A stretch of 64,000 nt of DNA from Chloroflexota bacterium (GTDB lineage Bacteria > Chloroflexota > Dehalococcoidia > UBA2247 > RBG-13-53-26), in contig VGOM01000003.1 in assembly GCA_016875915.1 (NCBI GenBank), positions 66,716-130,715 of the forward strand, read 5' to 3'. Numbering within the stretch: the stretch's first letter is position 1; each line of letters starts with the position of its first letter. Positions 34,855-54,455 of the stretch are shown piece by piece. A model generated the notes under the pieces. The model had not been told where the DNA came from and ran no database searches. It worked only from the letters and a program-made list of their open reading frames with translations. The position numbers and the translations under genes are program-made.

Positions 34855-34980
34855 GTCCTTCCGCGGAAGGATCATCCCTCACTTGATCCAGCATCCACTC
34901 CGCTCAAGCGTGTCATCCCGCACTTGATGCGGGATCCAGGGGTGGTGCGGGGACCAAGACGGGTGATGCAAACCCACCCC
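34855..34980. repeat. REP-like repeat cluster: two tandem units plus flanking hairpins
   Basis: CCTTCCGCGGAAGG palindrome; partial unit GATCATCCCTCACTTGAT; full unit GTCATCCCGCACTTGATGCGGGATCCAGGGGTGG; GGGGTGG...CCACCCC inverted repeat. Confidence 0.8.
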
Positions 34981-35037
34981 GTCGTACTTGCCACGCGGCG
35001 GCCCCGGGCGTACACTCGAACATTGGACCCGTTGGCA

Positions 35038-35994
35038 ATGAGCACTCTCCTACTCGGCCGGAAGGAAGTCGCGGGACTGCTGGACATGGGGGAGGTCATG
35101 CGGGTGGTGGAGCAGGCCTTTCGCGACTACGCTGCCGGGTGTGCCCAGATGCCGGCCAAGGTCTACCTCCGCGTCCCCAGGGGCGACTTCCGGGCCATGC
35201 CCGCCGCCGTGCCCCATGCCGCGGGCGTGAAATGGGTCAACGTCCATCTCTCCAACCATGAGCGGGGACTGCCCAGCATCATGGGCGTCCTCATCCTCAG
35301 CGATCCGGACACCGCCTATCCCCTGGCCATCATGGATGCCACGGAAATCACCGCTTACCGCACGGCGGCCACCTCTGCCAACGCCTCCCGGCACCTGGCC
35401 CGCCCGGAGTCGCGTACTCTGGGGTTGATCGGCGCGGGACGCCAGGCCAGGATGCACCTCCAGTCCCATGCCCTAGTCTTCGCCTTGGAGAGGGTCAGGA
35501 TCCACGACGTTCACCTCCAGGCTGCCGAATCCCTGGTCAGGTCCTTCCCCCAGCTCTGTGCCGAGGCCTGCTCCGCTGAGCAGGCGGCTGCTTCGGACAT
35601 CGTCTGCACGCTGACCCCGTCCACCGTGCCCGTGGTGAAGGCGGCCTGGATCAGGCCGGGGACCCACATCAACGCCGTTGGCGCCGATGCGCCCGGCAAG
35701 CAGGAGTTGGAGCCATCGCTGTTGCTCTCAGCGCGGGTGGTGGTCGACGATCTCACTCAGGCCTGCCATGCCGGTGAGATCAATGTTCCCCTGTGTCGCG
35801 GTCTCTTCAGCAAGGAGCAGGTCTGGGCTACCCTGGGCGAGATCATCGCCGGGGCCAAGCCCGGCCGCAGTGATGACCGGGAGATCACCATCTTCGATTC
35901 CACCGGACTGGCCATCGAGGATGTGGCCACGGCCTGGATGGTCTATCAGCGGGCGAAGGCGCATGGCGGCTACCCCTCCATGGACATCGTCTGA
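35038..35994 (+). CDS. ornithine cyclodeaminase / mu-crystallin family protein
   Basis: 318 aa; Rossmann motif LGLIGAGRQA; OCD fold. The upstream in-frame part of the track ORF is translated repeat DNA. Confidence 0.75.
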   Translation: MSTLLLGRKEVAGLLDMGEVMRVVEQAFRDYAAGCAQMPAKVYLRVPRGDFRAMPAAVPHAAGVKWVNVHLSNHERGLPSIMGVLILSDPDTAYPLAIMDATEITAYRTAATSANASRHLARPESRTLGLIGAGRQARMHLQSHALVFALERVRIHDVHLQAAESLVRSFPQLCAEACSAEQAAASDIVCTLTPSTVPVVKAAWIRPGTHINAVGADAPGKQELEPSLLLSARVVVDDLTQACHAGEINVPLCRGLFSKEQVWATLGEIIAGAKPGRSDDREITIFDSTGLAIEDVATAWMVYQRAKAHGGYPSMDIV

Positions 35995-36006
35995 GGTTGA
36001 GGAAGC

Positions 36007-37350
36007 CTAGCCGCCGCTGGGCCCCAGCCAGGGCGTGCCGCCGGGCGGCAGCACCTCGAACGGCTCGCCGGCCAGCTTGGCGCTCAGGGTTGTCGCCACT
36101 GATTCCGCCGGCACCCGGATCTGCTTCAGGGAGTCCCTGTCCCTGATCGTCACCTGGTGGTCTTCCAGCGACTGGAAGTCGATGGTCACGCAGTAAGGAG
36201 TGCCGATCTCATCCTGGCGGCGGTAGCGCCTGCCGATGCTCTGCGAGTCATCGTACTGGGTGATCATGCACCGCCGCAGGCGGGCGTTGACCTCCGTGGC
36301 CATGGGCACCAACTTCTCGTTGCGGCTCAGGGGCAGCACGGCAGCCTTGATCGGCGCCAGGTCGGGGTGCAGCCTCAGCACCACCCGCTTCTCCTTCTCC
36401 ACCGTTTCCTCGGCGTAGGCGTCGAGGAGGAAGGCCAGCACCGAGCGGTCCACTCCGGCAGAGGGCTCGATGATGTAGGGCAGGAAGCGCTGCCCGCTCT
36501 CGTCGTCGAAGTAGCTCAAATCCTTGCCGCTGTGCTTGGCGTGCTGCTCCAGGTCGAAGCTGCCCCGGTTGGCGATGCCCTCCAGCTCCGACCAGCCCAT
36601 GGGGAAGAGATACTCCACGTCGTAGCAGCCGATGGCGTAGTGGGCCAGTTCCTCCTTCCCGTGCTGGCGCAGGTGGAGGTGCTCCTTCTTGATGCCCAGC
36701 CTGGTGTACCAGTTGAACCGCTGTTCCAGCCAGTACTCGAACCACTTGCCGTCGGTGCCGGGCTTGACGAAGTACTCCATCTCCATCTGCTCGAACTCGC
36801 GGCTTCTGAAGATGAAGTTCCCCGTGGTGATCTCGTTGCGGAAGGACTTGCCTATCTGGGCGATGCCGAAGGGGAGCTTCTTCCGTGACGAACCCAGGGC
36901 ATTCTGGAAGTTGACGAAGATCCCCTGGGCCGTCTCCGGGCGGAGGTAGACCACTGCCGCCTGATCCTCCACCGGGCCCATGAAGGTCTTGAACATCAGG
37001 TTGAACATCCGGGGCTCGCCGAGGACGCCCCCGCACTGGGGGCACTTGTTGCCAGGCACCTGATCGGCCCGGAAGCGGGAGTTGCAGGACTTGCATTCCA
37101 CCAGCGGGTCGGCGAACTGCTGGACGTGTCCGCTGGCCACCCACACCTGGGGGTGCATCAGGATGGCGGAATCGAGGCCCACCACGTCGTCTCTCTCGTG
37201 GACCATGGCCTTCCACCAGGCCTCCTTGACGTTGCGCTTGAGCTCCACGCCCAGTGGCCCGTAGTCCCAGCAGCTGCCCAGTCCGCCGTAGATCTCGCTG
37301 GACTGAAAGATGAAACCCCGCCTCTTGCACAGCGAGACGATGGTCTCCAT
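36007..37350 (-). CDS. glyQS: glycine--tRNA ligase (dimeric alpha2 type)
   Basis: [20 protein letters not shown] class-II motif; anticodon-binding C-terminus; ~448 aa from ATG 37350. Confidence 0.9.
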
Positions 37351-37470
37351 GTCAACGCCGTTTCCCTGCTTCACTCCCTGCGCGTCTCCCTTCAATTCGT
37401 TGCAGTTAAGGTATCAGCTTTGTGCTGCAGTGTCAAAGCTTGACACTGGGTGCGGCGATGCGGAAGAATT

Positions 37471-38115
37471 ATGGCCATGATTCTCAGGGGACTGGAAGTT
37501 GGCATGTATATGTCCAACTGCTACATCGTGGGCTCGGAGAAGACCCTCGACGGGATGATTATTGACCCCGGTGGTGAGGCGGGACGGATTCTGGAGACTG
37601 TTCAGGACCTCGGCCTGACTGCCAGGATCATTGTGGCCACCCATCTGCACTTGGACCACATCGGTGCCGTGGCCAAGGTCAAGGAGGCCACTGGGGCCCA
37701 GTTCGCGGCCCACGAATCGGCAGGCTCCAAGAAGGGTGGCCAGGCCGTCAACCGGATGGTTGCCTCCATGATGGGCGGCTCCTTCCGCGCTCCGCCTCAG
37801 CCTGACAGGCTGCTGCGTGAAGGGGACACCGTCGAGGTCGGCGAGCTGCGCTTCGGGGTGATCCACACCCCCGGCCACAGCCCCGAAGGGATGTGCCTCT
37901 ATGGCCACGGCCTTCTGTTCTGCGGGGATACCCTGTTCAACCTGAGCATCGGCCGGACGGACTTCCCCGGCGGCGACTATGACCAACTGATGGGCAACAT
38001 CCACAAGAAGCTGATGACCCTCCCCGATGAGACCAGGGTGCTCTGCGGCCATATGTCGGAGACCACCATTGGCTTCGAGCGCAAGCACAACCCCTTCGTG
38101 CTCGGCCTCTACTAG
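37471..38115 (+). CDS. MBL-fold hydrolase (glyoxalase II-like)
   Basis: HLHLDHIG and HTPGHSPEG motifs. Confidence 0.7.
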   Translation: MAMILRGLEVGMYMSNCYIVGSEKTLDGMIIDPGGEAGRILETVQDLGLTARIIVATHLHLDHIGAVAKVKEATGAQFAAHESAGSKKGGQAVNRMVASMMGGSFRAPPQPDRLLREGDTVEVGELRFGVIHTPGHSPEGMCLYGHGLLFCGDTLFNLSIGRTDFPGGDYDQLMGNIHKKLMTLPDETRVLCGHMSETTIGFERKHNPFVLGLY

Positions 38116-38211
38116 TCAGGCCGTTTCCCTCTGCTGTCCGCAAGTCCTCAAAAAGAGTAGCGCGGGGCATGCCCCGCGCTTACTGACTTGATCGGTATCC
38201 GCAGCCTTGAT

Positions 38212-40281
<2,070 letters not shown>

Positions 40282-40491
40282 CAGCAACCCTCCTTGATCC
40301 GGCCACAAACTAAGGGGGCCGTCTGCAGCGGTCCCCCGGGGCGAGATCGACAACTGGCCTGAGACACTGGCCATAGAGTTTACCGAAAGGGCTATTGGCG
40401 GTCAAATGGCCGAACGCGTGGGATGCCCGCCCGCACGTTGTGGGCCGCCGCACCGATGGTGTAGAATACGGCGTCACCCTGGGAGCGCAAT

Positions 40492-43194
40492 GTGGACAGG
40501 CCTCTTCTTGTTCTCTTCGATGGTCATGCCCTGGTCCACCGCGCCTTCCATGCCCTGCCCCCCCTTTCGGTGAGCAAGACGGGTGAGCCGACCGGAGCGG
40601 TGTACGGCTTCGTCCTCATGCTGCTCAAGGTCATTCACGACCTCAAGCCCACCCACTGGGCCATCGCCTTTGACCGGCCCACCCCCACCTTCCGCCACCT
40701 GGAGTTCGATGAATACAAGGCCCAGCGGCCCAAGGCCCCTGACGAGCTCGTCCGGCAGTTTGGCCGGGTCCGGGAGGTGGTCGACGCCTTCAAGATGCCG
40801 GCCTTCGAGGTGGATGGCTATGAGGCTGATGACGTCCTGGGCACCATCGCCCGTCGAGCCTCGGCTCAGGACATGGACACCATCATCGTCACCGGTGACA
40901 ACGATGAGCTGCAGCTCGTTTCACCCAGGGTGAAGGTCCTCCTCCCCCAGAGGGGCTTCGCCGAGTCCAGCCTCTACGATGTTGCCGCGGTCAACGCCAA
41001 GTACGGCGTTTCCCCGGGGCAGGTGGCCGATTTGAAGGGACTCAAGGGCGATCCCTCGGACAACATCCCCGGGGTCCCCGGTGTGGGCGACAAGACCGCC
41101 GCCCGGCTGATCCAGGAGTTCGGCACCGTTGAAGCGGTCTACCAGCGCCTCGATGATGTCGCCCCGCCCAAGCTCCGCGAGACCCTCCGGGCCGGCGAAA
41201 CCCAGGCCAGACAGGGCAAACGGCTGGCCACCATCATCACCGACGTGCCGGTGGACTTCGACCCCGCCCGCTGCACGGTGGGCGGCTACGACCGCCCCCG
41301 GTTGCTGCAGCTCCTTCGGGAGCTGGAGTTCTTCCGGGTGCTGGACCGCCTGCCTGAGCTGGGGAACGGGCAACCCGCCGCCGCGCCTGACCCTCCCCAG
41401 GGCGGCCCGGAGTATCAGCTTGTGGAAGCGGCCCCCGATCTTCATCAGGTGGTCGAGGCCCTGGCCGGCAGCACCGCCTTGGTCATCCATCCCGTGGTCC
41501 AGCGCGCGGGCCGCGGTCAGACGGAGCTCATCGGCCTGGCGCTCTGGGTTCCCCAAGGCAGGACTTGCTACGTGCCGTTGCGCCGTGGACCGTCCATGTG
41601 GTCGCGGGGACTGGACCCGGAGCAGGCCCTGGGCCTGCTCCGCCCTCTGCTCTCGGCGGCTCAGCCCGCCAGATGGGCCCACGACACCAAGGAGGTCATC
41701 ACCTGCCTCCTCGACCACGGCATCGGGCCGGTCAGCCTGGACTTCGACACCATGATCGCGGCCTATCTCCTGGGGGAGAAGGCGCTGGACCTCAGGACGC
41801 TGGCCATGAGCCGACTGGGAGTCGAGCTGGCGTCTTCGGCGGAGCTGATCGCCCCCAAGCGGGGACTGGCCGCCGGGGAGGACCTCCCCGGACTTCCCGG
41901 AGTTGCCTGTGCCGAAGCGGCGGCCGTGGGCCGGCTCCAGCCGCTGCTGAAGGAGGCCATGGCCGGGCAGGGACTACTCAAGTTGTTCACCGAGGTGGAG
42001 ATGCCTTTGGTCCCCGTTCTGGCCCGGATGGAGCGGAACGGGGTGGCCCTGGACGTCGACCACTTCAGGGCCATGTCCCAGAATCTGGGAAGACAACTCC
42101 TGGAGCTGGAGCGCTTGATCTACGGCTTCGCCGGACATCCTTTCAACATCAACTCCCCGCAGCAGCTGGGCACCGTCCTGTTCAGCGAGCTGAAGCTGCC
42201 CGGAGGCAGGAAGACCAAGACCGGCTACTCCACGGAGGCCTCCGTTCTGGAGGGCCTGGCCGGGAGCGTCCCCATTGTCAAGCTGGTCCTGGAGTACCGC
42301 CAGTTGGCCAAGCTCAAGTCCACTTACATCGATGCCCTGCCCGTCCTGGTGGACCGCCGCACAGGACGGGTGCACACCAGCTTCAACCAGACGGTGGCCG
42401 CCACGGGACGGCTCTCCTCCAGCGATCCCAACCTGCAGAACATCCCTATCCGGGGCGAGCTGGGCAATCAGGTGAGGCGGGCCTTCGTCGCCGCCCCCGG
42501 TTGCCTCCTGGTCAGCGCGGACTACTCCCAGATAGAGCTTCGGGTCCTGGCCCACCTCTCCCGGGACGCCGGCCTGCTCACCGCCTTCCAGGAGGACAAG
42601 GACATCCATGCCGCCACGGCCGCCGAGGTGTTCGGGGTGTCCCTGGCCGAGGTCACCTCCGACATGCGCCGCATCGCCAAGGTGGTCAACTTCGGGGTGG
42701 CCTATGGCATGAGCGACTACGGACTGGAGCAGGCCACCGAGCTCTCCCGGGAGCAGGCCTCGAAGTTCATTGCCTCGTATTTCCAGAGGTACCCCCGGGT
42801 GAAGGACTACATCGAGGCCACCAAGAGGCAGGCCCGGGACAGGGGCTATGTGGAGACCCTGCTGGGACGGAGGCGGTACATCCCCGAGATGCACTCCCCC
42901 AACAGGCAGCTCCGGGAGGCCGCCGAGCGGATGGCCATCAACATGCCCGTTCAGGGGACGGCGGCCGACATCATCAAGGTGGCCATGGTCGACCTTCAGA
43001 GGGCCTTGGACAGGGATGGTATGATGTGTAGGATGATCCTCCAGGTGCACGACGAGCTTCTCCTCGAAGCGCCGCAGGGAGAGGTGGAGCGGGCCCGCCG
43101 GCTGGTGGAGGAGAAGATGTCCCAGGCGGCTGCCCTGGCCGTCCCGCTGAAGGTGGATGTCAAGGTGGGGCCGAACTGGGCCGAGATGAATTAG
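40492..43194 (+). CDS. polA: DNA polymerase I
   Basis: 5'-nuclease domain (LLVLFDGHALVHRAFHAL); 3'-5' exo-like region; polymerase motifs A/B/C (DYSQIELR, RRxAKxxNFGxxYG, VHDE). GTG start. Confidence 0.95.
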   Translation: MDRPLLVLFDGHALVHRAFHALPPLSVSKTGEPTGAVYGFVLMLLKVIHDLKPTHWAIAFDRPTPTFRHLEFDEYKAQRPKAPDELVRQFGRVREVVDAFKMPAFEVDGYEADDVLGTIARRASAQDMDTIIVTGDNDELQLVSPRVKVLLPQRGFAESSLYDVAAVNAKYGVSPGQVADLKGLKGDPSDNIPGVPGVGDKTAARLIQEFGTVEAVYQRLDDVAPPKLRETLRAGETQARQGKRLATIITDVPVDFDPARCTVGGYDRPRLLQLLRELEFFRVLDRLPELGNGQPAAAPDPPQGGPEYQLVEAAPDLHQVVEALAGSTALVIHPVVQRAGRGQTELIGLALWVPQGRTCYVPLRRGPSMWSRGLDPEQALGLLRPLLSAAQPARWAHDTKEVITCLLDHGIGPVSLDFDTMIAAYLLGEKALDLRTLAMSRLGVELASSAELIAPKRGLAAGEDLPGLPGVACAEAAAVGRLQPLLKEAMAGQGLLKLFTEVEMPLVPVLARMERNGVALDVDHFRAMSQNLGRQLLELERLIYGFAGHPFNINSPQQLGTVLFSELKLPGGRKTKTGYSTEASVLEGLAGSVPIVKLVLEYRQLAKLKSTYIDALPVLVDRRTGRVHTSFNQTVAATGRLSSSDPNLQNIPIRGELGNQVRRAFVAAPGCLLVSADYSQIELRVLAHLSRDAGLLTAFQEDKDIHAATAAEVFGVSLAEVTSDMRRIAKVVNFGVAYGMSDYGLEQATELSREQASKFIASYFQRYPRVKDYIEATKRQARDRGYVETLLGRRRYIPEMHSPNRQLREAAERMAINMPVQGTAADIIKVAMVDLQRALDRDGMMCRMILQVHDELLLEAPQGEVERARRLVEEKMSQAAALAVPLKVDVKVGPNWAEMN

Positions 43195-43209
43195 GGCTGG
43201 AGGGGGCAG

Positions 43210-43584
43210 ATGAGCCACGCCAGGATACTTGTAGCCGATGATGAGCCTGATATCCGCCTCATGGTGACTCGGATGCTGGGCAAGGACTACCTGGTCCTGG
43301 AGGCGGCGAACGGAAACCAGGCCGTCAGCCTGGCCCGGCTGCACAAGCCCGACCTCGTCCTGATGGACATCATGATGCCCGAGAAGGATGGCTACTCGGC
43401 CTGCGCCGCCATCAAGTCCGATCCCGACACCAAATGCATCCCCGTGATCATGGTCACCGGCATCGACCACCAGCTGAACATCAAGCTCAGCGAAGAGATG
43501 GGCGCTGACGGATACATCACCAAACCCTTCAGCCTCGACGAGTTGCTCAATGTGGTTACCAGGTACGTCCAGAGCACCGGCTAG
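43210..43584 (+). CDS. single-domain response regulator (CheY-like receiver)
   Basis: DD...D phospho-acceptor (LMDIMMP) and K motifs; 124 aa. Confidence 0.8.
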   Translation: MSHARILVADDEPDIRLMVTRMLGKDYLVLEAANGNQAVSLARLHKPDLVLMDIMMPEKDGYSACAAIKSDPDTKCIPVIMVTGIDHQLNIKLSEEMGADGYITKPFSLDELLNVVTRYVQSTG

Positions 43585-44917: not shown

Positions 44918-44982
44918 AGATCATCCGGCCCTGTGCTCTCAACGTCATCCCGCACTTGATGCGGGATCCATGGGGCGGGGTG
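44918..44982. repeat. REP-like hairpin repeat, copy (core ATCCCGCACTTGATGCGGGAT)
   Basis: Shares the core TCATCCCGCACTTGATGCGGGATCCAGGGG with the loci at 34855, 45538, 49277 and 54396. Confidence 0.8.
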
Positions 44983-45492: not shown

Positions 45493-45537
45493 GGGCCCCG
45501 TGGCCAATGCGCCTCGGTCCGCTGGCCGTGCCGTAGT

Positions 45538-45622
45538 GTCCTTCTTCGGAAGGACTACCCTCTCTGATGTCATGCCGCACTCGATGCGGCATCCAGAGGC
45601 GGTGGGGGTGCACGCACCCCCG
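45538..45622. repeat. REP-like composite repeat (UUCG-type hairpin + core hairpin + GC hairpin)
   Basis: GTCCTTC-TTCG-GAAGGAC, then GTCATGCCGCACTCGATGCGGCATCCAG, then GGGGGTG-CACG-CACCCCC. Confidence 0.8.
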
Positions 45623-45694
45623 TTTGACACGCCGCCAAGATACTTCGTACAATACTAATAGTTTCTCGGCAGTGATGGGAAGAGGAGGCTGCAG

Positions 45695-45892: not shown

Positions 45893-45914
45893 AGCCCTGC
45901 CTCAGCGCCGGGCC

Positions 45915-48443
45915 CTATTGGCCGGCCTCCTGCACCTCGAAGACCACCGTGGAGTACCCCCTGTCGTAGGTGAAGCCGATCCGGCCGGAGCCGTCGGCCT
46001 GCAGGGTCTCCAGCCGCGTTCTGTGCCCGCCGTCCCTGGTGTACCACACGGCATAGGACTTGCCCGGGGAGAGGTCGCCCACCACGTGCGCCGTGGTCAC
46101 GCTTGATGCGCTGGCCGACTCCGTCCATTTCCGGTAGCGGTCGCCCGAGCTGTTCCAGGCGCCGATGGCGATCTCCACGGAGCCCGACGAAGGGGCGACG
46201 CTCATGTTCACCGACTCCGTGGACGTCACCCCAGCCAGATCGATCAGCAGTGCCGCGTTGCCTTGCGCGTCGATAGTGGTCACCCCCCGGGAGAAGGGCC
46301 GGCTGAAGCGGCTCACCGCCACCCGTGTGCTGAACGTCCCGTCCAGCATCAGCGATATCCTTCCGGTGGCCGGGTCGTAGGTGGCGTCCAGCACGTTCGT
46401 GGCCGGGGTGGACACCGAGGTGATCCGCGGCAGGTCCGGGTTGTAGCTCCCCTTGAGCACCTGCAGCGTCTCCATGGAGTTGCTCTGCTTCCCGTAGCGG
46501 AGGGTCTGTCCGTCCACACAGATCCAGTAGTCGTCACCCACCCTGACCTCTCCGATGGGGAAGGGCATGACTATGTCCAGCTCGTGCCTGGCCTCGCCGT
46601 CCCCGAACGGCGACGAATCCAGGGTCAGGGCGATGTTCCCTGATTTGTCCTCGATAGAGTTCATCCTGGTCCACAGCCAGCCGATGCTCTTGTTGGCCGC
46701 CGTCTGGGTGGAGACCAGGTCGAAGCCTGCCGTCTTCATCACGCTGAGGGCGGAAAGATAGGAATCCCGGAGCTGGTACCCCGGGGTATCGCCCCGGTCG
46801 AACTGCCACAGGTGGTTGGTCACCAGACACACCGGGTAGCTGCCGGCGTAGCCCATGAAGTTCCTCGAGAAGAGGACCTGCTGAGCGCTGCTCAGAGCCA
46901 CGTCGGTGTTGTAGCCGATGTCGGCCGGGGAAACCCGGCCCGGAACGTAGGTGCCGTTCACCCAGCCCAGGGTCATGGTGTGGTGCTCCGTCTCCGGCTT
47001 GGCCGAGATCACCGTGAACCCGTACTTGCTGGCCAGGCCGTTTGTGTACCCGTCCAGATACTGGAACTTGGTGGCGATGAGCACCTGGGTGTCGGAGTAG
47101 CCGTAGAGGTCGAGGACCTCCCTCATCCTCTTCAGCCAGGATTCCTGCACCGCCATGTCCGGCTCCATGAAAGCCCCCACGCTGTACATCTCCAGGTCCG
47201 GGTCCGCGGTATTGGTCACCCCGTCGCCGTCCATGTCCCAGTCCAGCCAGTTCTTCGTGCCATCGCCATCGGCATCGCCGAAGGGATCGACTGGAAGGCA
47301 AGACCCCGCCCAGCGCCACCAGTCCCTGTCGTGCTGATAGCCGTGCGACGCCACGATGTAGTCCTGGTATGGCCTCAGAATGTCCATCAGCTCTTCGCTG
47401 TCGGCATTGTACTGCCCATTGTCGTTGTACTGGGGGGGATCCTGATCGTAGACCATTATGCCTGCCGGCGGCTTGGGATCCAACTGGTCCTCCATGAAGG
47501 CCAGGGTGGGATACCCGCCCAGATTGGCCTTGGTCCAGTTGATCAGGCTGACGTAGTCCTCGATGGCCGTCTCCGGGACGCCGCAGTCATCGATCTCCAG
47601 GGAGTAGTACGGTTTCACGTAGGGCATCCCCGAGTACTCCTGGATCAGCCGCACCAGCATCGAAGCGTGGACCGGATAGCCCCAGTCCTTGAACCCGAAG
47701 TAGACCGCCCGCGCCCCGCTGCCATACTTTGCCAGAGTGATCGCCGGGGTCCCGTCGCTGTAGCTCTCCAGAACGGTCACCCCGCTGGCGCTGGCCGAGA
47801 TGTTCATGAACCCCCAGCTCGTGCCGCTGATCTGATACCCCTTGAAGGGCTCCAGAGCCCAGGTCCCCGCCCGGTTGGCCGCCGTCAGGCTCTTGGCGGC
47901 GCTGCCCGAAATCCCCACCTGGAACACATTGTTCACGTTCCCGCCCCAGGTGCAGTCGTTCTCCATCCGGACTATCCCCAGGAAGGGATACTCCTCGAAC
48001 ATCCGCTTCACGCTTCTCTCCGGCGTCTCCACGTCGGAGTAGGCATAGCCGTCCCCGGCATCGAAGATGATCACCCGGTACCGCATGTTCCCGTTCAGCA
48101 CCAGGTCTAGGTCCCCGCGCCCGCCGCCCTGGTCCTTCAGATACCACCGGTCCCCGCCCCCCGCCAGATCGTAGCGTTCGGTGCGGTCGAAGACCTGAAC
48201 AGAGTACCCCCACTTCTTCAGCGGGGTCTCCAGCAAAGGCAGCTCGGAGCTGGCCACGGCATCGCCCCTGACCAGTATCAGGATGCGGTGGTCAATGGAA
48301 GTGCCCGTGCCGCTGCTGTTGTTGTGGCTGTCGTCCGGCGGGGCGGTCTTGGCCTGGGCGCAGAGAGAAACGCTGCTGATGATCAGGATGGCCAAGACCA
48401 GAATTGAGGAGGATGCCCACGCTCTCCTGAGGAGTCTCTTCAT
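45915..48443 (-). CDS. large secreted protein (~842 aa) with a polysaccharide-deacetylase/DUF2334-like region and tandem Ca-binding DxDGDG loops
   Basis: Signal peptide MKRLLRRAWASSSILVLAILIISSVSLCAQA; HGYQHDRDWW motif; DADGDGTKNWLDWDMDGDGVTNTAD; W/Y/N-rich composition unlike GC-driven spurious ORFs. Confidence 0.6.
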   Translation of the reverse strand: MKRLLRRAWASSSILVLAILIISSVSLCAQAKTAPPDDSHNNSSGTGTSIDHRILILVRGDAVASSELPLLETPLKKWGYSVQVFDRTERYDLAGGGDRWYLKDQGGGRGDLDLVLNGNMRYRVIIFDAGDGYAYSDVETPERSVKRMFEEYPFLGIVRMENDCTWGGNVNNVFQVGISGSAAKSLTAANRAGTWALEPFKGYQISGTSWGFMNISASASGVTVLESYSDGTPAITLAKYGSGARAVYFGFKDWGYPVHASMLVRLIQEYSGMPYVKPYYSLEIDDCGVPETAIEDYVSLINWTKANLGGYPTLAFMEDQLDPKPPAGIMVYDQDPPQYNDNGQYNADSEELMDILRPYQDYIVASHGYQHDRDWWRWAGSCLPVDPFGDADGDGTKNWLDWDMDGDGVTNTADPDLEMYSVGAFMEPDMAVQESWLKRMREVLDLYGYSDTQVLIATKFQYLDGYTNGLASKYGFTVISAKPETEHHTMTLGWVNGTYVPGRVSPADIGYNTDVALSSAQQVLFSRNFMGYAGSYPVCLVTNHLWQFDRGDTPGYQLRDSYLSALSVMKTAGFDLVSTQTAANKSIGWLWTRMNSIEDKSGNIALTLDSSPFGDGEARHELDIVMPFPIGEVRVGDDYWICVDGQTLRYGKQSNSMETLQVLKGSYNPDLPRITSVSTPATNVLDATYDPATGRISLMLDGTFSTRVAVSRFSRPFSRGVTTIDAQGNAALLIDLAGVTSTESVNMSVAPSSGSVEIAIGAWNSSGDRYRKWTESASASSVTTAHVVGDLSPGKSYAVWYTRDGGHRTRLETLQADGSGRIGFTYDRGYSTVVFEVQEAGQ

Positions 48444-48634
48444 CAGGTCAAAACAAACTGGCTGAGCTTCGTCCCCGACGGCCGCCGCACCGCGCAAAGC
48501 GGCTCTTCAGCAGCACAATTGGGGTCTCGCGCTCTGGCCGTCCCCCGTGTACCCGACCACTACCTTAGTCGCTGCGGCTGGCCGCTTTCCCTCTGGGCGC
48601 TCGGGCAGGGGCCGGGCCGACTCCGTGCCCGACC

Positions 48635-48643
48635 TGCTATAAT
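48635..48643 (+). promoter_or_regulatory. extended -10 promoter element TGCTATAAT (candidate leaderless transcript)
   Basis: The identical 9-mer occurs at 44106. The first ATG (48642) overlaps the box, so the next ATG (48651) would sit at about +1 to +3. Confidence 0.4.
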
Positions 48644-48650
48644 GTCCGCC

Positions 48651-49274
48651 ATGGAGGGACCTCAGAAGTGGGACCGCTCCTATCTCGAGCCGCCCGACAC
48701 CAGTTGGCGCAGCGACACCCGGCTTCGGCCCGTCGAAGTGGTCGTCTGCACCACCACCGGCACCTTCTCCGGCCGGACCTACCGCCTCGACCGCCAGCGT
48801 CTCCTCGATGCCCTGAACCAGGGCCTGGCCCCCAAAGGCTCTTCCATCGGCAGGGACTTCCTGCCTCTGACCCAGGTTGAGGTCTGCTCGCCGGATGGCA
48901 CCAGGGCTTCCCTGGAATCCACCTTCGTGGGCAAAGCCAACATTCTCTTCGTCGGTGAGCGCAGCAAAGGCCAGGTCAGCCCCTCCGCCGCGGGCGGCGA
49001 CCAGCGGGGACCGCATTGGCGGGAGAAGAAGCCCGTGGCCACGGAGGTGCGCGTCTCGTCCTACGTCATCGTGGGCAGCATGCACACCGAGGCGTGGCAG
49101 GAGCTACTGGAGATCCTTGACAGCGAGGAGCGCTTCCTCCCCCTGACCGGCGTCCGGGTCACGCCGGCCCCGGCCGCCGGCGACGCCGAGTTCGAATTCG
49201 TGGCCGTGAACAAGGCCCGCATAGACTACCTCGGCCAGCCCCCGGTTGATCCGCTGCGTTCATCCCTGGTATGA
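48651..49274 (+). CDS. hypothetical protein (~207 aa), possibly leaderless
   Basis: ORF 48519..49274; an ATG at 48642 or 48651 lies just after the TGCTATAAT box; no RBS. Confidence 0.4.
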   Translation: MEGPQKWDRSYLEPPDTSWRSDTRLRPVEVVVCTTTGTFSGRTYRLDRQRLLDALNQGLAPKGSSIGRDFLPLTQVEVCSPDGTRASLESTFVGKANILFVGERSKGQVSPSAAGGDQRGPHWREKKPVATEVRVSSYVIVGSMHTEAWQELLEILDSEERFLPLTGVRVTPAPAAGDAEFEFVAVNKARIDYLGQPPVDPLRSSLV

Positions 49275-49276
49275 AG

Positions 49277-49355
49277 TCGACTGTCTCTCCCCTCCCGATG
49301 TCATGACGCACTTGATGCGGCATCCGGGTGAGGCTGGGGTGCGTGTAGACAGTCC
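49277..49355. repeat. REP-like hairpin repeat copy flanked by 8-bp inverted repeat GACTGTCT/AGACAGTC
   Basis: Core GTCATGACGCACTTGATGCGGCATCCGGG. Confidence 0.8.
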
Positions 49356-49376
49356 GGGAATCGAAGGAACTGGGCC

Positions 49377-50237
49377 ATGCCCAAATGTCTGATAGCCTAC
49401 TTCTCGCAGACGGGAGCCACGGCCCGGGCCGGTGAGCGCATTGCCGCCGGCCTGCGCGCTTCGGCCTTTGAAGTCAAAGCCTGCAACATCAAGGACCAGA
49501 AGCCGCCGGATGTCAACGAATACGACGTCCTGGGCATCGGGTTGCCTGTCTATGTCTATGCCCCGCCGCTCAACGTCTCTGACTACGTCAGAAGCCTGCC
49601 CCGTCTCGATGGGAAATCGGCCTTCGTCTTCGTCACCTACGGCACCTACCGCTTCAATGCCGCTGACCGCATCCGGCAGGCGCTGGCCCGCAAGGGGGCC
49701 AAGGGAGTGGGCTACTTCCACTGCCGTGGTGCTGACTTCTACCTGAGCTACCTCAAGCTGGGCTACCTCTTCTCTCCGGATCATCCCACAGCCGAGGAAC
49801 TGGCCGGGGCGGAGGCCTTCGGCGGGCAGGTCGCCGCGCGGGTCAAGGCCGGGGAGGACTTCAACGCGGCAAGGGAAAGCGCCCCATCCCTGATCTACCG
49901 CATCGAACGGGCCTCATTCAGTCGCTGGATGTCCACCTGGCTCCATACCAGGTTCTTCAAAGTTGACCAGCAGAAATGCAACATGTGCGGCCTTTGCGCC
50001 GCACGTTGCCCGGTGGGCAACATCACCGAGGACAAGGCCGGCTACCCTGTCTGGGGACGCGATTGCCTGCTCTGCCTCACCTGTGAAATGGAATGTCCCG
50101 AAGAGGCCATAGCTTCCCTGCAAACCTCAAGGGCCTTCCTCCCCTTCATGAAGCACAACGTCCGGAAGGCCTGTGAAGACCCCTCAGTCACCCATGCACG
50201 GGTGACTCAGCGCAATGGCCGTACCATCCGCGTCTAG
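49377..50237 (+). CDS. flavodoxin-like domain fused to 2x[4Fe-4S] ferredoxin domain (EFR1-type ferredoxin)
   Basis: IAYFSQTGAT flavodoxin signature; CNMCGLCAARCP and CLLCLTCEMECP. Confidence 0.65.
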   Translation: MPKCLIAYFSQTGATARAGERIAAGLRASAFEVKACNIKDQKPPDVNEYDVLGIGLPVYVYAPPLNVSDYVRSLPRLDGKSAFVFVTYGTYRFNAADRIRQALARKGAKGVGYFHCRGADFYLSYLKLGYLFSPDHPTAEELAGAEAFGGQVAARVKAGEDFNAARESAPSLIYRIERASFSRWMSTWLHTRFFKVDQQKCNMCGLCAARCPVGNITEDKAGYPVWGRDCLLCLTCEMECPEEAIASLQTSRAFLPFMKHNVRKACEDPSVTHARVTQRNGRTIRV

Positions 50238-50281
50238 CAGACGGTCGAGCCTGCTCCCTTCGTATCCGGGCTGAGGCCCGG

Positions 50282-50290
50282 TGGTATAAT
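50282..50290 (+). promoter_or_regulatory. extended -10 promoter element TGGTATAAT
   Basis: TGnTATAAT 38 nt upstream of the ATG at 50329. Confidence 0.4.
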
Positions 50291-50328
50291 GTCGCCGATG
50301 GAGTCAAGTGAGGTAGGGGGAACCAGCT

Positions 50329-50616
50329 ATGGCACCGACTGACTGGGTGAAATGGGGAGTCGCCGCAGAGTTTGCGCCGCCAAACCATGGTGAGCCGGCC
50401 AAGAGGAAGCTCCGCTGCGTGTACTGTGAGATCGAGACCATGCATGAATGGCTCGAACCCACTGGATGGTGGCAGTGCGGTGAATGCAAACACCTGAGGC
50501 GGCCGCACGGACTCTACTGCCCCGTGTGCAAGGAAGGGATGCTGCACTTCCAATACTACGATGTCTGGAAGTGCCGGGTGTGTGGTCATGCCAAGCAGGA
50601 GGGTGACGGCGACTGA
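50329..50616 (+). CDS. zinc-ribbon protein (four CxxC pairs)
   Basis: CVYC...CGEC...CPVC...CRVC; 95 aa. Confidence 0.5.
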   Translation: MAPTDWVKWGVAAEFAPPNHGEPAKRKLRCVYCEIETMHEWLEPTGWWQCGECKHLRRPHGLYCPVCKEGMLHFQYYDVWKCRVCGHAKQEGDGD

Positions 50617-50632
50617 GCCGGAGTTTGCTCCC

Positions 50633-51169
50633 CTACTGCTCTCCTGAGCGCCTCTTGTGCAGCAGCCTGGCCACGTGCGGGGCCACCGGATTGTAGTGCA
50701 GACCCTTCTCCCTGATCAGCCTCACGATATACCTGATCAGGAAGACCTCCAGCAGCAGGATGCCCGCGATGGCGCACAGGTCGGCCACGTTGAAGATCGT
50801 CCTCACCTGGCCCCCCGAGGTGATCAGCTCCACGAAGTCGGTCACATGGCCGTAGGCGATCCGGTCCACCAGGTTCCCCAGGCTGCCCCCGATGAACAGC
50901 CCCGTGCCCAGGTTGAGCAGCGTGTCGTTGGTTCGCTCCAGCCGCCAGTAGAGCACCAGGGACGCCCCAATCATCAGCGAAGGCAGGAGCACGGAGATCA
51001 GGGGCGAAGCCGGAATGCCCAGGAATATCCCCGGATTGACCACGTAGGTCATCCGCAGCCAGAAGTCCTGAGGCAGGGCCTCGCCCAGCGTCAGGCTCTC
51101 CCTGACGCACAGCTTGGTGAGCTGGTCCAACTCCAGCACCGCCAGGGCCACGAAAGGCGCCAGCAGCAT
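50633..51169 (-). CDS. lspA: lipoprotein signal peptidase II
   Basis: Motifs NPGIFLG, GGSLGNLVDR and FNVAD; four TM segments. Start chosen at MLLAPF. Confidence 0.8.
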   Translation of the reverse strand: MLLAPFVALAVLELDQLTKLCVRESLTLGEALPQDFWLRMTYVVNPGIFLGIPASPLISVLLPSLMIGASLVLYWRLERTNDTLLNLGTGLFIGGSLGNLVDRIAYGHVTDFVELITSGGQVRTIFNVADLCAIAGILLLEVFLIRYIVRLIREKGLHYNPVAPHVARLLHKRRSGEQ

Positions 51170-51438
51170 CACCCGCCACAGCCCCGCCCCCCTCAGTCCT
51201 CCCCCGCTGGCGGCCTCAGCCTCAATCCTCGTAGACACCTTTGGGTCAGTCGCCCCCCCCACAGCCCCATTCTCACACCACTAGGCGCAGACTGCAAACG
51301 CGCCCGGGCCGTGCGCAGGCACGGGGAACGCCACCCACTATAGGGCAGGCGGCTCACATCGATGTCTCATTCCCCGGCGCGGACTTAACATAACCTCCGC
51401 CCCGGCACCGCCCGTCGGCCGCGGGTGGCCGGCGCGGC

Positions 51439-52218
51439 TCAGCCCGGGAAGGACAGGCCGCCGCTGACGCTGAAGATCTGCCCGGTGATCTGGTTGGATT
51501 CCTCTGCAGCCAGGAACAGGGTCAGTTGGGCGATGTCCCCCGGCCGGTTCATCCCGAAGGGCATTCGCTCCTCGGCCTTCTTGAAGATCCGGTAGATATG
51601 GCTGGTGGGGTCGGCCATGGCATAGTCGTAGCCCGGGGTGTCCTTGGTCACCGTGGTGCAGATGGTGTTGACCCGTATCTGCCACCGGGCTGTCTCCTGG
51701 GCGATCACTTTGGTCATCAGCACCAGCCCCGCCGCGGCCCCCCCGATCAGCGACTCCCTGGGGGTCGGCGTCCTTCCCGCGTCCGTGGTGATCATGATGA
51801 TCTTCCCCTGCTGCCTTTCCATCATGTGGTCCAGCACGGCCCGCACGCAGTAGAGCCGGGACAGCAGGTGACTCCTCACCGTGTCCACGTACAGCCCCGG
51901 GTCGATCTTGACGAAGAACTCCGGCGGCGCTCCGCCCCCCGCCCCGCTGGCCACCAGGATGTCCACCCGGCCGCACCTCCCCACCGCCCGGTCCACCATC
52001 CGCTTCACTTGCTCATAGTCCCAGATGTCGGCCTCCTCAAAGCTGGCCTGCCGTCCCATCCCCCGGATCTCCTCCAGGACCGGCCGGGCCTGTTCCTCGC
52101 TCCGCCCGTTCAGCACCACCTCCGCCCCGTTCCGCGCCAGGGTAAGGGCCACCGCCCTGCCGATGCCCTTGGTCGATCCGGTGACCAGCGCCACCTTGCC
52201 CGTCAGGTCTGCCTGCAT
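51439..52218 (-). CDS. SDR-family oxidoreductase
   Basis: TGSTKGIGRAVA, NGR and YxxxK-like motifs. Confidence 0.8.
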   Translation of the reverse strand: MQADLTGKVALVTGSTKGIGRAVALTLARNGAEVVLNGRSEEQARPVLEEIRGMGRQASFEEADIWDYEQVKRMVDRAVGRCGRVDILVASGAGGGAPPEFFVKIDPGLYVDTVRSHLLSRLYCVRAVLDHMMERQQGKIIMITTDAGRTPTPRESLIGGAAAGLVLMTKVIAQETARWQIRVNTICTTVTKDTPGYDYAMADPTSHIYRIFKKAEERMPFGMNRPGDIAQLTLFLAAEESNQITGQIFSVSGGLSFPG

Positions 52219-52374
52219 GCTCTGCCTCCCTCGAAGAACTGCTAGGTCATGCTATAGAACCCAAGCCCTCGCCGCAAGTCCCCCGCCGCAGGCGGGCCCG
52301 TCCAAAGTGGCGGCCCCGGCCCGACAACCGCTACACTAGTACCTTGGGCGCAGATCAACGCGAAAGGACGGACC

Positions 52375-54378
52375 ATGAGAACACTCACCAAGCTCTTCCA
52401 GCCCATCAGGATCGCCGATGTTCGGGTCAAGAACCGCATCGTCATGTCCCCCATGGGACTGGGCCGGGCCACCGTGGACGGCTACGTCACCGACGGCATG
52501 GTCGACTTCTACATCGAGAGGGCCAGGGGTGGGGCCGGACTGATCTACGTTGTCTGCGGCTACAACGACTTCTGCGTCTACCTGCCCACCATCCCCGCCC
52601 TGGAGGACGACAAGTTCCTTCCCGGACTCAGGAGGCTCACCGGCGCCATGCACGAGCACGGCGCCAAGGTCTTCGCCCAGCTGATGAGCATGGGTTCATC
52701 CAGCTTCGGCATGCCCGGTGGCATCCCCCAGCCGGCGCCCTCGGCCATCCTCAACACCCTCACCAAGTGCATGCCCCGGGAGATAACCACCGCCGAGGTC
52801 AGGCTGCTCGTCGAGCATTTCGCTGAAGGTGCCTGGCGCGCCAAGGAGGGCGGCTTCGACGGCGTGGAGCTCTGCGGCAACGGCGGCTACATCATGAACC
52901 AGTTCCTCTCCCCGCTGACCAACCAGCGCACCGACGAGTACGGCGGGGATTTCGAGAGGCGGACGAGGTTCCCCATCGAGGTCGTCCGGGCCATCAGGAC
53001 CAGGGTCGGACCGGGCTACCCCATCTCCTACCGGGCCTCCGGCGATGACTTCATGGAGGGCGGCAACCGCCGCGAGGAGGTCAAGGCCGTGGTCAGGGCC
53101 CTGGAGAAGGCCGGCATCGACCTCATCAACGTCACCGCCGGCTGGCACCAGTCCTTCCTGCCCCTGGCCTCCATGGACGTCCCCCGCGGCACCTACGTCT
53201 ATCTGGCCCACGGCATCAAGCAGGAGGTCGGCCTCCCCGTCATCGCCTGCAACCGCATCAACAACCCCTTCCTGGCCGAGCAGATCCTGGTTAACGGCCA
53301 GGCGGACATGATCGGCATGGGCCGCCCCTTCCTCACCGACCCCGAATGGCCGAAGAAGGCCGCCGAGGGACGCTACGACGAGATCCGCCAGTGCACCGCC
53401 TGCGACCAGCGCTGCCTCGATGCCGTCTTCTCCCTCAAGGAGATCACATGCACCTTCAACCCCGCCGCCGGCAGGGAGAAGCAGTACGCCCTCATCCCCG
53501 CCCCGAAGATGCGCAAGGTCCTGGTCATCGGCGGCGGTCCCGCCGGCATGGAGGCCGCCCGCACCCTGGCCCAGCGGGGCCACCGGGTCACCCTGTACGA
53601 GAAGTCCCACAGGCTCGGCGGCCAGTTCAACCTGGCCGCGGTGCCCCCCGGCCGGGGCGAGTTCGCCTCCGCCGTGGACTTCATGGCCCGGGAGCTCTAC
53701 CGGGTCGGCGTCAGGGTGGAGCTGGGCCATGAGGCCAGCGCGGATACAGTCAAGAAGCACCGGCCCGACGCCGTGATCATCGCCACCGGCGCCACCCCCC
53801 TGCACCCCGACATCCCCGGTATAGACGGCGGCAACGTCTTCGGCGCCTGGGAGGTACTGGAGCGCAAAGCCGCTCTGGGCAAGCGGGTGGTCGTCATCGG
53901 TGGCGGGGCGGTGGGCATGGAGACAGCCCTGTTCATCGCCCGCCAGGGCCCCCTGTCCGCTGAATCGGCCGTGTTCCTTGCCCTGGGCGAAGGACTGGAT
54001 GCCCAGGCCGCCGTCCAGTTGCTCCGCAGTGGCCCCGAGGTCACCATACTGGAGATGCTCGACCGCATCGGCCAGGATATGGGGCCGACCACCCGGTCCT
54101 CCATCAGGTTCGCCTTGCGCCAGCACGGGGTGAAGGTCATCACCCGGGCCAAGGCCCGCCGCATCACTCAGGCCGGCGTCATCTACCAGCTCGGCGGCAA
54201 AGAGGCTCTGGCCGAGGCGGACGCCGTGGTCATCGCTATGGGCGCTAGGCCGGAGAACCGCCTCTTCGAAGCCCTTCAGGGCCTGGTCCCCGAGGTCTAC
54301 AGCATCGGCGACTGCGTCAAGGCCCGGACCGCCTGTGAAGCCATCGAAGAAGGCGCCCTCATCGCCCGCCAGATCTAG
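52375..54378 (+). CDS. Old-Yellow-Enzyme-family FMN oxidoreductase fused to FAD/NAD(P)-binding domain (2,4-dienoyl-CoA reductase/enoate reductase-like)
   Basis: N-terminal OYE TIM barrel (RIVMSPMG); CxxC...C [4Fe-4S] linker (CTACDQRC); GGGPAG and GGGAVG Rossmann motifs; 667 aa. Confidence 0.85.
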   Translation: MRTLTKLFQPIRIADVRVKNRIVMSPMGLGRATVDGYVTDGMVDFYIERARGGAGLIYVVCGYNDFCVYLPTIPALEDDKFLPGLRRLTGAMHEHGAKVFAQLMSMGSSSFGMPGGIPQPAPSAILNTLTKCMPREITTAEVRLLVEHFAEGAWRAKEGGFDGVELCGNGGYIMNQFLSPLTNQRTDEYGGDFERRTRFPIEVVRAIRTRVGPGYPISYRASGDDFMEGGNRREEVKAVVRALEKAGIDLINVTAGWHQSFLPLASMDVPRGTYVYLAHGIKQEVGLPVIACNRINNPFLAEQILVNGQADMIGMGRPFLTDPEWPKKAAEGRYDEIRQCTACDQRCLDAVFSLKEITCTFNPAAGREKQYALIPAPKMRKVLVIGGGPAGMEAARTLAQRGHRVTLYEKSHRLGGQFNLAAVPPGRGEFASAVDFMARELYRVGVRVELGHEASADTVKKHRPDAVIIATGATPLHPDIPGIDGGNVFGAWEVLERKAALGKRVVVIGGGAVGMETALFIARQGPLSAESAVFLALGEGLDAQAAVQLLRSGPEVTILEMLDRIGQDMGPTTRSSIRFALRQHGVKVITRAKARRITQAGVIYQLGGKEALAEADAVVIAMGARPENRLFEALQGLVPEVYSIGDCVKARTACEAIEEGALIARQI

Positions 54379-54395
54379 CGCCTTGCATGCCGGCA

Positions 54396-54455
54396 GGTCC
54401 GCCTCTGGCGGATCATCCCTCACTTGATGCGGCATCCAGGGGGTGGCGGCGTCCC
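54396..54455. repeat. REP-like hairpin repeat copy
   Basis: GGATCATCCCTCACTTGATGCGGCATCCAGGGGGTGG. Confidence 0.8.

Follow-up and report, generated by a model that had tools for sequence, protein, structure and literature searches.

Hairpin repeats downstream of genes in an uncultured Chloroflexota bacterium and their likely kinship with CGTC-tagged REPs and the Ssn-related motif

A 64-kb stretch of DNA from the metagenome-assembled genome of a Chloroflexota bacterium (the window) contains short hairpin sequences that recur between its genes, and the question arises to which family they belong and by which enzyme, if any, they are recognised. The original prediction was of a REP-like family of oriented hairpin repeats, intergenic and mostly placed just 3' of genes, which might act as transcript stabilisers, terminators or RAYT substrates.

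Repeat units in the window

The repeated-hairpin family is real, and its REP-like character, orientation and position relative to genes are all supported. Six units with a common core, (T/C)GTC-ATCCCGCA-CTTGA-TGCGGGAT-CCA, lie at five intergenic loci, all on the + strand (Table 1). The proposed count of the core 21-mer ATCCCGCACTTGATGCGGGAT, with up to three mismatches allowed, gave five matches in the window (at 34915, 44947, 45572, 49303 and 54415), again all on the + strand, and none in 100 shuffles. The tandem arrangement of two units suspected at 34855..34980 was borne out by a degenerate sixth unit (34869-34897), which lies 41 nt before the unit at 34910. A seventh copy is present on the + strand about 5.8 kb outside the window (L120, position 9544), and it contains a G.T wobble, which pairs on the sense strand only. 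Inverted partners or BIME-like inverted doublets were not found in the window, where the copies occur as same-strand singletons and one head-to-tail pair. Direct translation of the core yields both of the recurrent spurious peptides attributed to it, IPHLMRDP in a + frame and RIKCGMT in a - frame.

Table 1. Repeat units and associated elements of the window
Feature	Position	Strand	Composition	State and surroundings
Degenerate unit	34856..34897	+	accessory hairpin TCCTTCCGCGGAAGGA (34856-34871) abutting TCATCCCTCACTTGATCCAGCATCCA	tag GATC instead of GTC; 3' arm decayed
Intact unit	34911..34946	+	TGTC-ATCCCGCA-CTTGA-TGCGGGAT-CCAG, then G-rich extension GGGTGGT	divergent intergenic region, histidine kinase gene (-) / ornithine cyclodeaminase gene (+)
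Intact unit	44943..44978	+	CGTC-ATCCCGCA-CTTGA-TGCGGGAT-CCAT plus GGGGCGG	starts 45 nt past stop at 44897; ends 38 nt before GyrI-like gene start at 45010
Three-part composite	45539..45621	+	accessory hairpin, intact unit, GC hairpin	followed by sigma-70-like promoter 45624-45653
Accessory hairpin of composite	45539-45554	+	TCCTTCTTCGGAAGGA	
Intact unit of composite	45568-45596	+	TGTC-ATGCCGCA-CTCGA-TGCGGCAT-CCAG	compensated G-C stem pair
GC hairpin of composite	45604-45621	+	GGGGGTGC-AC-GCACCCCC	
Unit with one stem mismatch	49299..49342	+	TGTC-ATGACGCA-CTTGA-TGCGGCAT-CCGG	starts 24 nt past stop at 49274; ends 49 nt before flavodoxin/Fer4 gene
Decayed unit	54398..54446	+	accessory hairpin TCCGCCTCTGGCGGA abutting TCATCCCTCACTTGATGCGGCATCCAG, plus GGGGTGG	tag GATC; two stem mismatches; 32 nt past stop at 54378; promoter-like site downstream at 54496

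The predicted fold, an 8-bp stem closed by a 5-nt CTTGA or CTCGA loop, holds for only some of the window units. The stem (ATCCCGCA/TGCGGGAT or ATGCCGCA/TGCGGCAT) is perfect in three of the six units, 34915, 44947 and 45572, for which folding as single-stranded DNA gave -9.0 to -9.6 kcal/mol; it carries one A/G mismatch in copy 49303 and is broken in copies 34872 and 54413, which have lost the family hairpin. The 5' tag reads TGTC at 34911, 45568 and 49299, CGTC at 44943, and GATC in both decayed units, and the 3' tail is CCA except in the unit at 49303, where it reads CCG. Directly 3' of the stem, ATCC is found in all six units, and GTC stands directly 5' of it in four.

The placement of copies just past the stop codons at 44897, 45492, 49274 and 54378 was verified, with gaps of 45, 75, 24 and 32 nt, respectively, and the remaining locus does lie in a divergent region, as had been supposed; three copies have a stop codon before them and a sigma-70-like promoter after them. 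Upstream CCTTC-N4-GAAGG hairpins were found where expected, at 34856-34871 and 45539-45554, and a similar hairpin, TCCGCC-N3-GGCGGA, at 54398-54412. An 8-bp flanking inverted repeat, GACTGTCT/AGACAGTC, is indeed present around 49303, but it is probably incidental, since the sequence of the orthologous site in a relative does not conserve it.

No copy is followed by a T/U run, G-rich sequence coming next instead, and therefore the repeats are not canonical intrinsic terminators, which leaves the proposed terminator role unsupported. Five terminator-like sites occur in the region 34700-54650, none of which overlaps a repeat. Neither an Rfam family (at gathering thresholds) nor a tRNA, a match to which had been named as an argument against the family, was detected in the window.

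Distribution and conservation of the core

The repeats are neither confined to the window nor an unfamiliar, genome-specific family, as could have been supposed from the original prediction, because the core recurs in many phyla and fits published families. A degenerate 24-mer of the core was found at more than 115 loci, compared with about 0.14 expected by chance (a uniform-composition estimate), in Patescibacteria, Bacteroidota, Alpha-, Gamma- and Zetaproteobacteria, Nitrospinota, Chloroflexota and others, so that an essentially invariant 24-nt core is found in over 100 genomes of very distant phyla. The sole freely degenerate stem pair is C..G in 116 and G..C in 10 of the 126 matches listed, and non-pairing in none. 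Window copy 45572 is of the G..C form, which is also carried by L127, a contig of the same lake metagenome series that may derive from another organism. When metagenomes were scanned with a pattern adapted to this lineage, only four short contigs came up, none with a GIY-YIG gene. Viral contigs contained five matching stretches, the genome-scan figure for comparison being that among the matches listed. The core sequence and spurious peptides of this kind had no literal match in the literature searched.

Two ideas on the origin of the pattern were abandoned. The loop CTTGAT resembles the nick sites of pC194 and phiX174; however, a HUH/rolling-circle nick site was rejected because loops vary freely among family members, and it is the flanks that are conserved. 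A replication-strand effect was considered in view of the GC skew, negative throughout the window, and the location of the copies on one strand, yet local skew at the cross-phylum matches listed had no bias (66 negative, 59 positive; Wilcoxon p = 0.96).

In a relative whose flavodoxin/Fer4 protein is 81% identical (proteins about 80%), a copy follows the DUF6812 gene at the position taken by 49303 in the window, and the spacer downstream of the GyrI-like gene, corresponding to the 45572 region, contains another, at a position that is not alignable. The orthologous copy of the 49299 unit is intact in relatives L128 and L129, and the core of the orthologous-site copy is conserved far above its flanks. 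One orthologous site has a different stem combined with the same tag and tail. From the matching position in a relative of about 80% identity we infer, by sequence comparison, that at least one of the window copies is old and vertically inherited. One related contig stops 7 nt short of a copy.

Published families and the partner enzyme

CGTC-tagged REPs were described by Di Nocera, De Gregorio & Rocco (2013, BMC Genomics 14:522; PMC3733652). They have a CGTC, TGTC or CCTC tag, an 8-9 bp stem starting with A-T, T-A, a 4-5 nt loop and a CCA tail, and most of them follow ORFs, in unidirectional or convergent settings; the authors found none of them flanking the gene of a RAYT or another transposase. 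The window units share the CGTC/TGTC tag, the 8-bp stem with A-T, T-A, the 5-nt loop and the CCA tail, and they are likewise multi-copy and intergenic, close to where the upstream ORF ends, with a core spread over several phyla and no associated Y1 transposase. Differences are that the article names five phyla, Chloroflexi not among them, and that its repeats are mostly head-to-head dimers (a family tendency, not a strict rule), whereas the window units are all on one strand. As stem and loop lengths agree with those given in its text, the window repeats would fit family CGTC-2.

The second relative is the NTS, or Ssn-related motif (SRM), of Chenal et al. (2025, Nat Commun 16:2388; PMC11893778), with the NTS sequence CGTCAT-TCCCGCG-MAV-CGCGGGA-ATCYRG, the SRM search sequence HGTCWYN(0-2)YYVSBRHN(0-5)WNVSBRGN(0-2)RNCYNB and the Neisseria dRS3 repeat as a member. 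According to these authors, the tagged strand folds into a hairpin on single-stranded DNA, which is bound by Ssn, a single-domain GIY-YIG nuclease of about 94 aa (cd10448), and cut a few nucleotides before the tag, on its 5' side. For binding, the C that directly follows the stem matters most, and cleavage relies on the three nucleotides that precede it. The nuclease does not act on double-stranded DNA, on RNA or on the reverse strand. The ssn genes are typically hairpin-flanked, in an IS-like SRM-ssn-SRM arrangement (PMC11893778).

The layout of the window units is the same, and all six have the binding-critical C after the stem. The published SRM pattern is matched exactly by two of them (34911-34939 and 44943-44971), compared with about 0.8 per simulated window, the others missing it because of the compensated G-C pair or decay. 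The window stem and loop, CCCGCA-CTTGA, differ from TCCCGCG-MAV of the NTS, and the published motif lacks both the accessory CCTTC-N4-GAAGG hairpin and the lineage-specific, G-rich stretch GGGGYGG on the 3' side. Moreover, natural transformation is a Neisseria phenotype, whereas the host here is an uncultured Chloroflexota bacterium.

In four unrelated genomes (L032, L085, L100 and L033) the same hairpin flanks genes for GIY-YIG proteins of about 95 aa, which is a further point in common with the SRM. These neighbours were assigned by PF01541 (E ~1e-15), and the association was found before comparison with PMC11893778. The hairpin precedes the start of the GIY-YIG gene by 3-80 nt, and a related one follows the stop, in direct orientation in L085, a Pseudovibrio genome, and inverted in the other three; no other neighbour is physically tied to the hairpin. 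All-against-all clustering of ORFs near 115 loci revealed no recurrent transposase. The larger clusters, by sequence inspection short-chain-dehydrogenase-like and transcription-regulator-like proteins, were rejected as partners, not being positioned relative to the hairpin.

Around the window copies themselves, the 64 kb and about 10 kb on each side (about 84 kb) contain no ssn or other GIY-YIG gene, in which they differ from the published arrangement, and no Y1 transposase gene. A search with the GIY-YIG protein gave no Chloroflexota name among the 120 matches listed of at least 8000.

Possible roles of the repeats

The window repeats are very probably members of the CGTC-tagged REP superfamily, that is, of the NTS/SRM group. 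They represent an ordinary new Chloroflexota instance of it, since the family is already described across phyla and is recognised by small GIY-YIG nucleases on single-stranded DNA. Each unit would then start with the unpaired tag (C/T)GTC, continue with a stem of 8 bp whose first pairs are A-T and T-A and which encloses a 5-nt loop, and end in an unpaired CCA tail. The copies may be viewed as gene-less, non-autonomous relatives of SRM-ssn-SRM units, residing in tolerated spots just 3' of genes, about half of them presumably in decay. If the genome encodes Ssn, candidate substrates would be only the intact GTC-tagged copies 34911, 44943 and 45568, and possibly 49299; the top strand TGTCATCCCGCACTTGATGCGGGATCCAG, as single-stranded DNA, would be bound and cut by Chloroflexota Ssn homologues.

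The copies could instead, or in addition, act mainly at the transcript level, lying in the 3' end of the upstream gene or in an intercistronic spacer, where an RNA hairpin would block 3' exonucleases or shape operon polarity. We regard this as possible, though rather doubtful. All seven copies are on the strand of the flanking + genes, and among the 126 cross-phylum matches listed, by crude ORF calls, co-orientation prevails by 36 vs 13 in unidirectional contexts and by 68 vs 30 with respect to the upstream gene. The location of three copies between a stop codon and a promoter-like site, the position kept in the relative of about 80% identity with the core conserved far above the flanks, and the sense-strand wobble of L120 point in the same direction, and Di Nocera et al. 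argue likewise for CGTC repeats (PMC3733652). On the other hand, no U-tract follows any copy, half the copies are without the stem, SsnA does not bind RNA (PMC11893778), and selection on top-strand single-stranded DNA would give the same strand asymmetry. A narrower proposal, that in this Chloroflexota lineage the hairpins are kept by selection as sense-strand elements of transcript 3' ends independently of any Ssn, is based on the 7/7 co-orientation, the position kept in the relative, the swapped stem with the same tag and tail, and the lack of ssn in 84 kb, and seems improbable to us.

Classical REP/REPIN elements moved by a RAYT (an IS200/IS605-like Y1 transposase), one of the possibilities raised at the outset, would also be short tagged hairpins, multi-copy and intergenic, and inverted partners occur downstream in 54 of the 126 cross-phylum matches listed, as in the often inverted doublets of GTAG REPs, REPINs and BIMEs in E. 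coli and Pseudomonas. In both systems, single-stranded DNA is recognised by a small enzyme of nuclease type, and the repeats flank its gene. However, the tag is C/TGTC rather than GTAG, the enzyme fold is GIY-YIG rather than HUH Y1, and the sequence of GTAG REPs is usually species-specific, whereas the core is identical across phyla here. The check for a RAYT (tnpA-REP) gene was negative, with no Y1_Tnp among about 50 window genes scanned; the CGTC-repeat literature reports no RAYT association (PMC3733652), the partner shown biochemically is Ssn (PMC11893778), and at the 115 loci it is GIY-YIG genes, in four cases, that are directly flanked, with no recurrent transposase. Mobilisation by RAYT is thus very hard to sustain. 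Equally little credence can be given to a double-stranded operator of a dimeric transcription factor of this organism. An intergenic palindrome with 8-bp arms and a 5-bp spacer, in some cases 30-60 nt ahead of a promoter-like site, might suggest it, but the identical sequence stands beside unrelated genes in many phyla, its asymmetric flanks are conserved, its stem changes are compensatory, and several copies lie between co-transcribed genes without a promoter.

A separate observation is that 15% of the cross-phylum copies listed have truncated 5'-half arrays just upstream, in which GTCATCCCGCACTT plus 6-8 nt is repeated 2-3 times. These arrays could be footprints of a copying mechanism, for instance one in which an Ssn nick primes synthesis that then stalls at the loop of the hairpin.

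Membership of the window repeats in the NTS/SRM group supplies a Chloroflexota case for a repeat family whose partner enzyme became known only in 2025. For annotation, it accounts for the recurrent spurious ORF peptides. The strand bias and the 5'-half arrays are the only side observations that touch on how these hairpins spread and on what role Ssn may have outside Neisseria.

Structure and distribution of the repeat units

Recounting of the core 21-mer ATCCCGCACTTGATGCGGGAT with up to three mismatches gave five matches in the window (34915, 44947, 45572, 49303 and 54415), against none in 100 dinucleotide-preserving shuffles. All five lie on the + strand, and their strand is unambiguous because the loop is asymmetric. 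Repeat finding revealed a degenerate sixth unit (34869-34897), head-to-tail with the one at 34910, in agreement with the tandem pair originally proposed. Read 5' to 3', a unit consists of an unpaired (T/C)GTC, an arm ATCCCGCA or ATGCCGCA, a CTTGA or CTCGA loop, the complementary arm, CCA and a G-rich GGGGYGG. As single-stranded DNA, three units fold into a perfect 8-bp hairpin (-9.0 to -9.6 kcal/mol) and copy 49303 has one stem mismatch; copies 34872 and 54413 have lost the hairpin and carry GATC in place of GTC. The accessory hairpins (see the table) and the GACTGTCT/AGACAGTC pair described in the original prediction are present, the spurious peptides are direct translations of the core in either strand, and its observation of the repeats is confirmed.

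One genome per species was scanned with a degenerate 24-mer, CATSMCKCACTYGATGCGGSATCC, that takes in the variants seen in the window; it matched more than 115 loci, where about 0.14 matches in 1.2e12 positions would be expected by chance (an estimate assuming uniform base composition). The family is not local to the window: the matches listed include Patescibacteria, Bacteroides, Mediterranea, Rickettsia, Coxiellaceae, Legionellaceae, many Alphaproteobacteria, Zetaproteobacteria, Nitrospinota, Omnitrophota, Rhodothermales and Chloroflexota. In the pattern, both positions of one stem pair are unconstrained, and among the 126 matches listed this pair was C..G in 116, G..C in 10 and never a non-pair, which speaks cleanly for selection on the hairpin itself. 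An inverted related hairpin (CTGGAT-stem-loop-stem-ATGAC), its stem different from that of the unit yet pairing internally, follows within 120 nt in 54 of the 126 matches listed.

Family assignment and the partner enzyme

The window repeats are a new Chloroflexota instance of an already published family. CGTC-tagged REPs, defined by Di Nocera et al. 2013 (PMC3733652), have a CGTC or TGTC tag, an 8-9 bp stem starting with AT, a 4-5 nt loop and a CCA tail; they lie mostly just downstream of ORFs, occur in five phyla and have no dedicated transposase. The window units agree with this superfamily in all structural criteria. From stem and loop length as given in the text of that paper, rather than from consensus sequences, we infer family CGTC-2.

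The Neisseria form, NTS (CGTCATTCCCGCGMAVGCGGGAATCYRG), extends the dRS3 repeat and is oriented (Chenal et al. 2025, PMC11893778). According to the same paper, NTS-like Ssn-related motifs (SRM) flank homologues of ssnA (cd10448, about 94 aa), which encodes a small GIY-YIG nuclease; at least one SRM lies near 71% of the homologues, and 42% are flanked by one on each side. For binding and cutting alike, SsnA accepts nothing but the tagged strand in single-stranded form, and it cuts a few nucleotides 5' of the motif; binding depends most on the C just past the palindrome, and cleavage on the three nucleotides that precede it. In N. meningitidis the system reduces transformation by NTS-bearing DNA, and the authors regard the SRM-ssn-SRM arrangement as IS-like and suggest domestication (PMC11893778). 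The published degenerate SRM search string matches exactly at 34911-34939 and 44943-44971; the remaining window units miss it only through a compensated G-C pair or decay.

Clustering of all ORFs from the 115 loci listed yielded no recurrent transposase. One small cluster was marked out by position, a protein of about 95 aa at four loci (L032, L085, L100 and L033) starting 3-80 nt past the hairpin on the same strand, with a related hairpin past its stop codon (direct in L085, inverted in the others). It consists of a single GIY-YIG domain (PF01541, E about 1e-15 to 1e-16) and, in a profile search, belongs to a very large, well-conserved family of at least 8000 proteins with E below 1e-10. A Pfam scan of the approximately 50 window genes found neither a GIY-YIG protein nor a Y1 transposase, and an HMM of the GIY-YIG proteins matched no window ORF of at least 50 aa and nothing in the flanks. 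Only four short contigs, all lacking a GIY-YIG gene, came out of a metagenome scan that used a lineage-flavoured pattern. The REP-like reading originally proposed is correct in part; both the repeat family and its partner enzyme were already published, and the expectation of a RAYT was wrong.

Genomic setting and age of the copies

Gene context was derived from ORF calls based on GC3, from Pfam scans and from the genes called on an identical JGI contig. Every window unit is intergenic. As predicted, four units begin 24-75 nt past stop codons of + strand genes (for a hypothetical protein, a GyrI-like protein, a DUF6812 protein and an OYE-type oxidoreductase), and one locus lies between divergent genes. 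Units 44943 and 49299 stand 38-49 nt before the next + strand start codon and are probably intercistronic, since no promoter-like site intervenes; sigma-70-like promoter matches occur 30-60 nt downstream of three units. About 10 kb were walked beyond each window end: a seventh copy, its stem with a G.T wobble, lies to the right (L120, 9544, + strand) between + strand genes, and no further copy was found to the left. A 2-kb metagenome contig (L117), identical to the window, ends at 44936, 7 nt short of repeat 44943, a position that would fit an assembly break at a repeat present in many copies.

Two contigs of a relative (L128 and L129) are syntenic with the window from PolA (MBM4444063.1) onwards, their flavodoxin/Fer4 protein being 81% identical. 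In both, a copy with an intact stem follows the DUF6812 gene at the position of 49303; its core is almost invariant, the flanks are about 70-75% identical, and the 8-bp flanking inverted repeat is not kept. L128 also has a copy after the GyrI-like gene, again accompanied by the CCTTCCGCGGAAGGA accessory hairpin; here the intergenic region of L128 exceeds that of the window by about 150 nt and the copies cannot be aligned to one position, so their orthology is uncertain. At the 44947 site, L128 (about 3650-3690) has another, shorter hairpin, TGTC-GTCCGCC-TCA-GGCGGAC-CCA, sharing tag, tail and G-rich 3' flank with 44943-44971; either the original stem was reshaped where it stood or another member of the family took its place. 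No comparable unit occupies the 54415 site. Judged from this site comparison, at least one copy is older than the split of the two lineages, and some sites have turned over.

The approximately 50 window genes scanned with Pfam are housekeeping genes, among them MutL, acetyl-CoA synthetase-like paralogues, a CODH/ACS cluster, Feo, 2-oxoacid:ferredoxin oxidoreductase, PolA and H+-PPase.

Features of the window and truncated repeat arrays (L-numbers, other loci compared)
Feature	Position	Strand	Basis
Three tandem paralogues, ~480-535 aa, CoA_binding + Succ_CoA_lig (ADP-forming acyl-CoA synthetase-like)	2344-6794	-	Pfam
CODH/acetyl-CoA synthase cluster (CdhC, CdhD, CO_dh, Prismane/CO dehydrogenase domains, CbiA-family ATPase)	9640-16874	-	Pfam
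Fourth CoA_binding/Succ_CoA_lig paralogue, 22 kb away	28228-29817	-	
Accessory hairpins	34856-34871; 45539-45554; 54398-54412		
860-aa ORF (842 aa in JGI gene calls)	45915-48497	-	strong coding GC3 signal
222-aa ORF, collagen triple-helix repeats	55629-56297	-	PF01391
MtrA-like/FeS protein, separate from CODH/ACS cluster	57942-58826	-	
158-aa ORF, ATGATG repeats, Met-rich MMxxMM-type repeat protein	59421-59897	+	direct-repeat family D4
Truncated 5'-half arrays, outside window	L017 ~1100-1170; L004; L022; L057; L011; L108; L053 4700-4830		

The three tandem CoA_binding/Succ_CoA_lig paralogues share 66-78% DNA identity over long stretches. The CODH/ACS cluster and the MtrA-like/FeS protein suggest that this Chloroflexota MAG encodes a Wood-Ljungdahl pathway. 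Neither the Met-rich nor the 860-aa ORF has a Pfam match; the latter is conserved in L128 and L129. The collagen-repeat ORF lies within a segment of about 6 kb (54.4-60.4 kb) absent from the syntenic position in L128. A strong sigma-70-like promoter, TTGACA-18-TACAAT (45624-45653), has a leader running to the GTG of a conserved 65-aa ORF (about 45695-45892). Promoter and leader (45622-45700; L128 4470-4555) are about 96% identical, against 81% for the flavodoxin/Fer4 protein, and far more conserved than the intergenic DNA around them.

Possible roles of the repeats

Work elsewhere has shown that the tagged strand folds on single-stranded DNA and that Ssn binds the hairpin and nicks 5' of the tag. 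The window units are probably gene-less relatives of SRM-ssn-SRM units that persist immediately 3' of genes, where their cost is low, and only intact GTC-tagged copies would stay Ssn substrates. A role at the transcript level is a reasonable addition to this reading, as all seven copies (six in the window and that in L120) are co-oriented with neighbouring genes, and co-orientation prevails by 36 to 13 in unidirectional contexts among the cross-phylum matches listed, the ORF calls there being crude. However, the copies lack a U-tract (no T-run follows any window unit), half of the local ones have decayed, and selection on top-strand single-stranded DNA would be expected to produce the same asymmetry. 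Replication-strand bias was tested as a cause of the orientation and not found.

A separate observation concerns truncated 5' halves, one to three of which lie just upstream of 19 of the 126 cross-phylum copies listed, and downstream of only 4. They are tandemly repeated, for example as GTCATCCCGCACTT with a 6-8 nt spacer, in Coxiellaceae, Bacteroides, Patescibacteria and Pseudovibrio, and could be a footprint of repeat copying; the word 'tandem' is absent from the main text of PMC11893778. The sense-strand bias and these arrays, neither of which appears in the text examined of PMC11893778 and PMC3733652, may merit a look.
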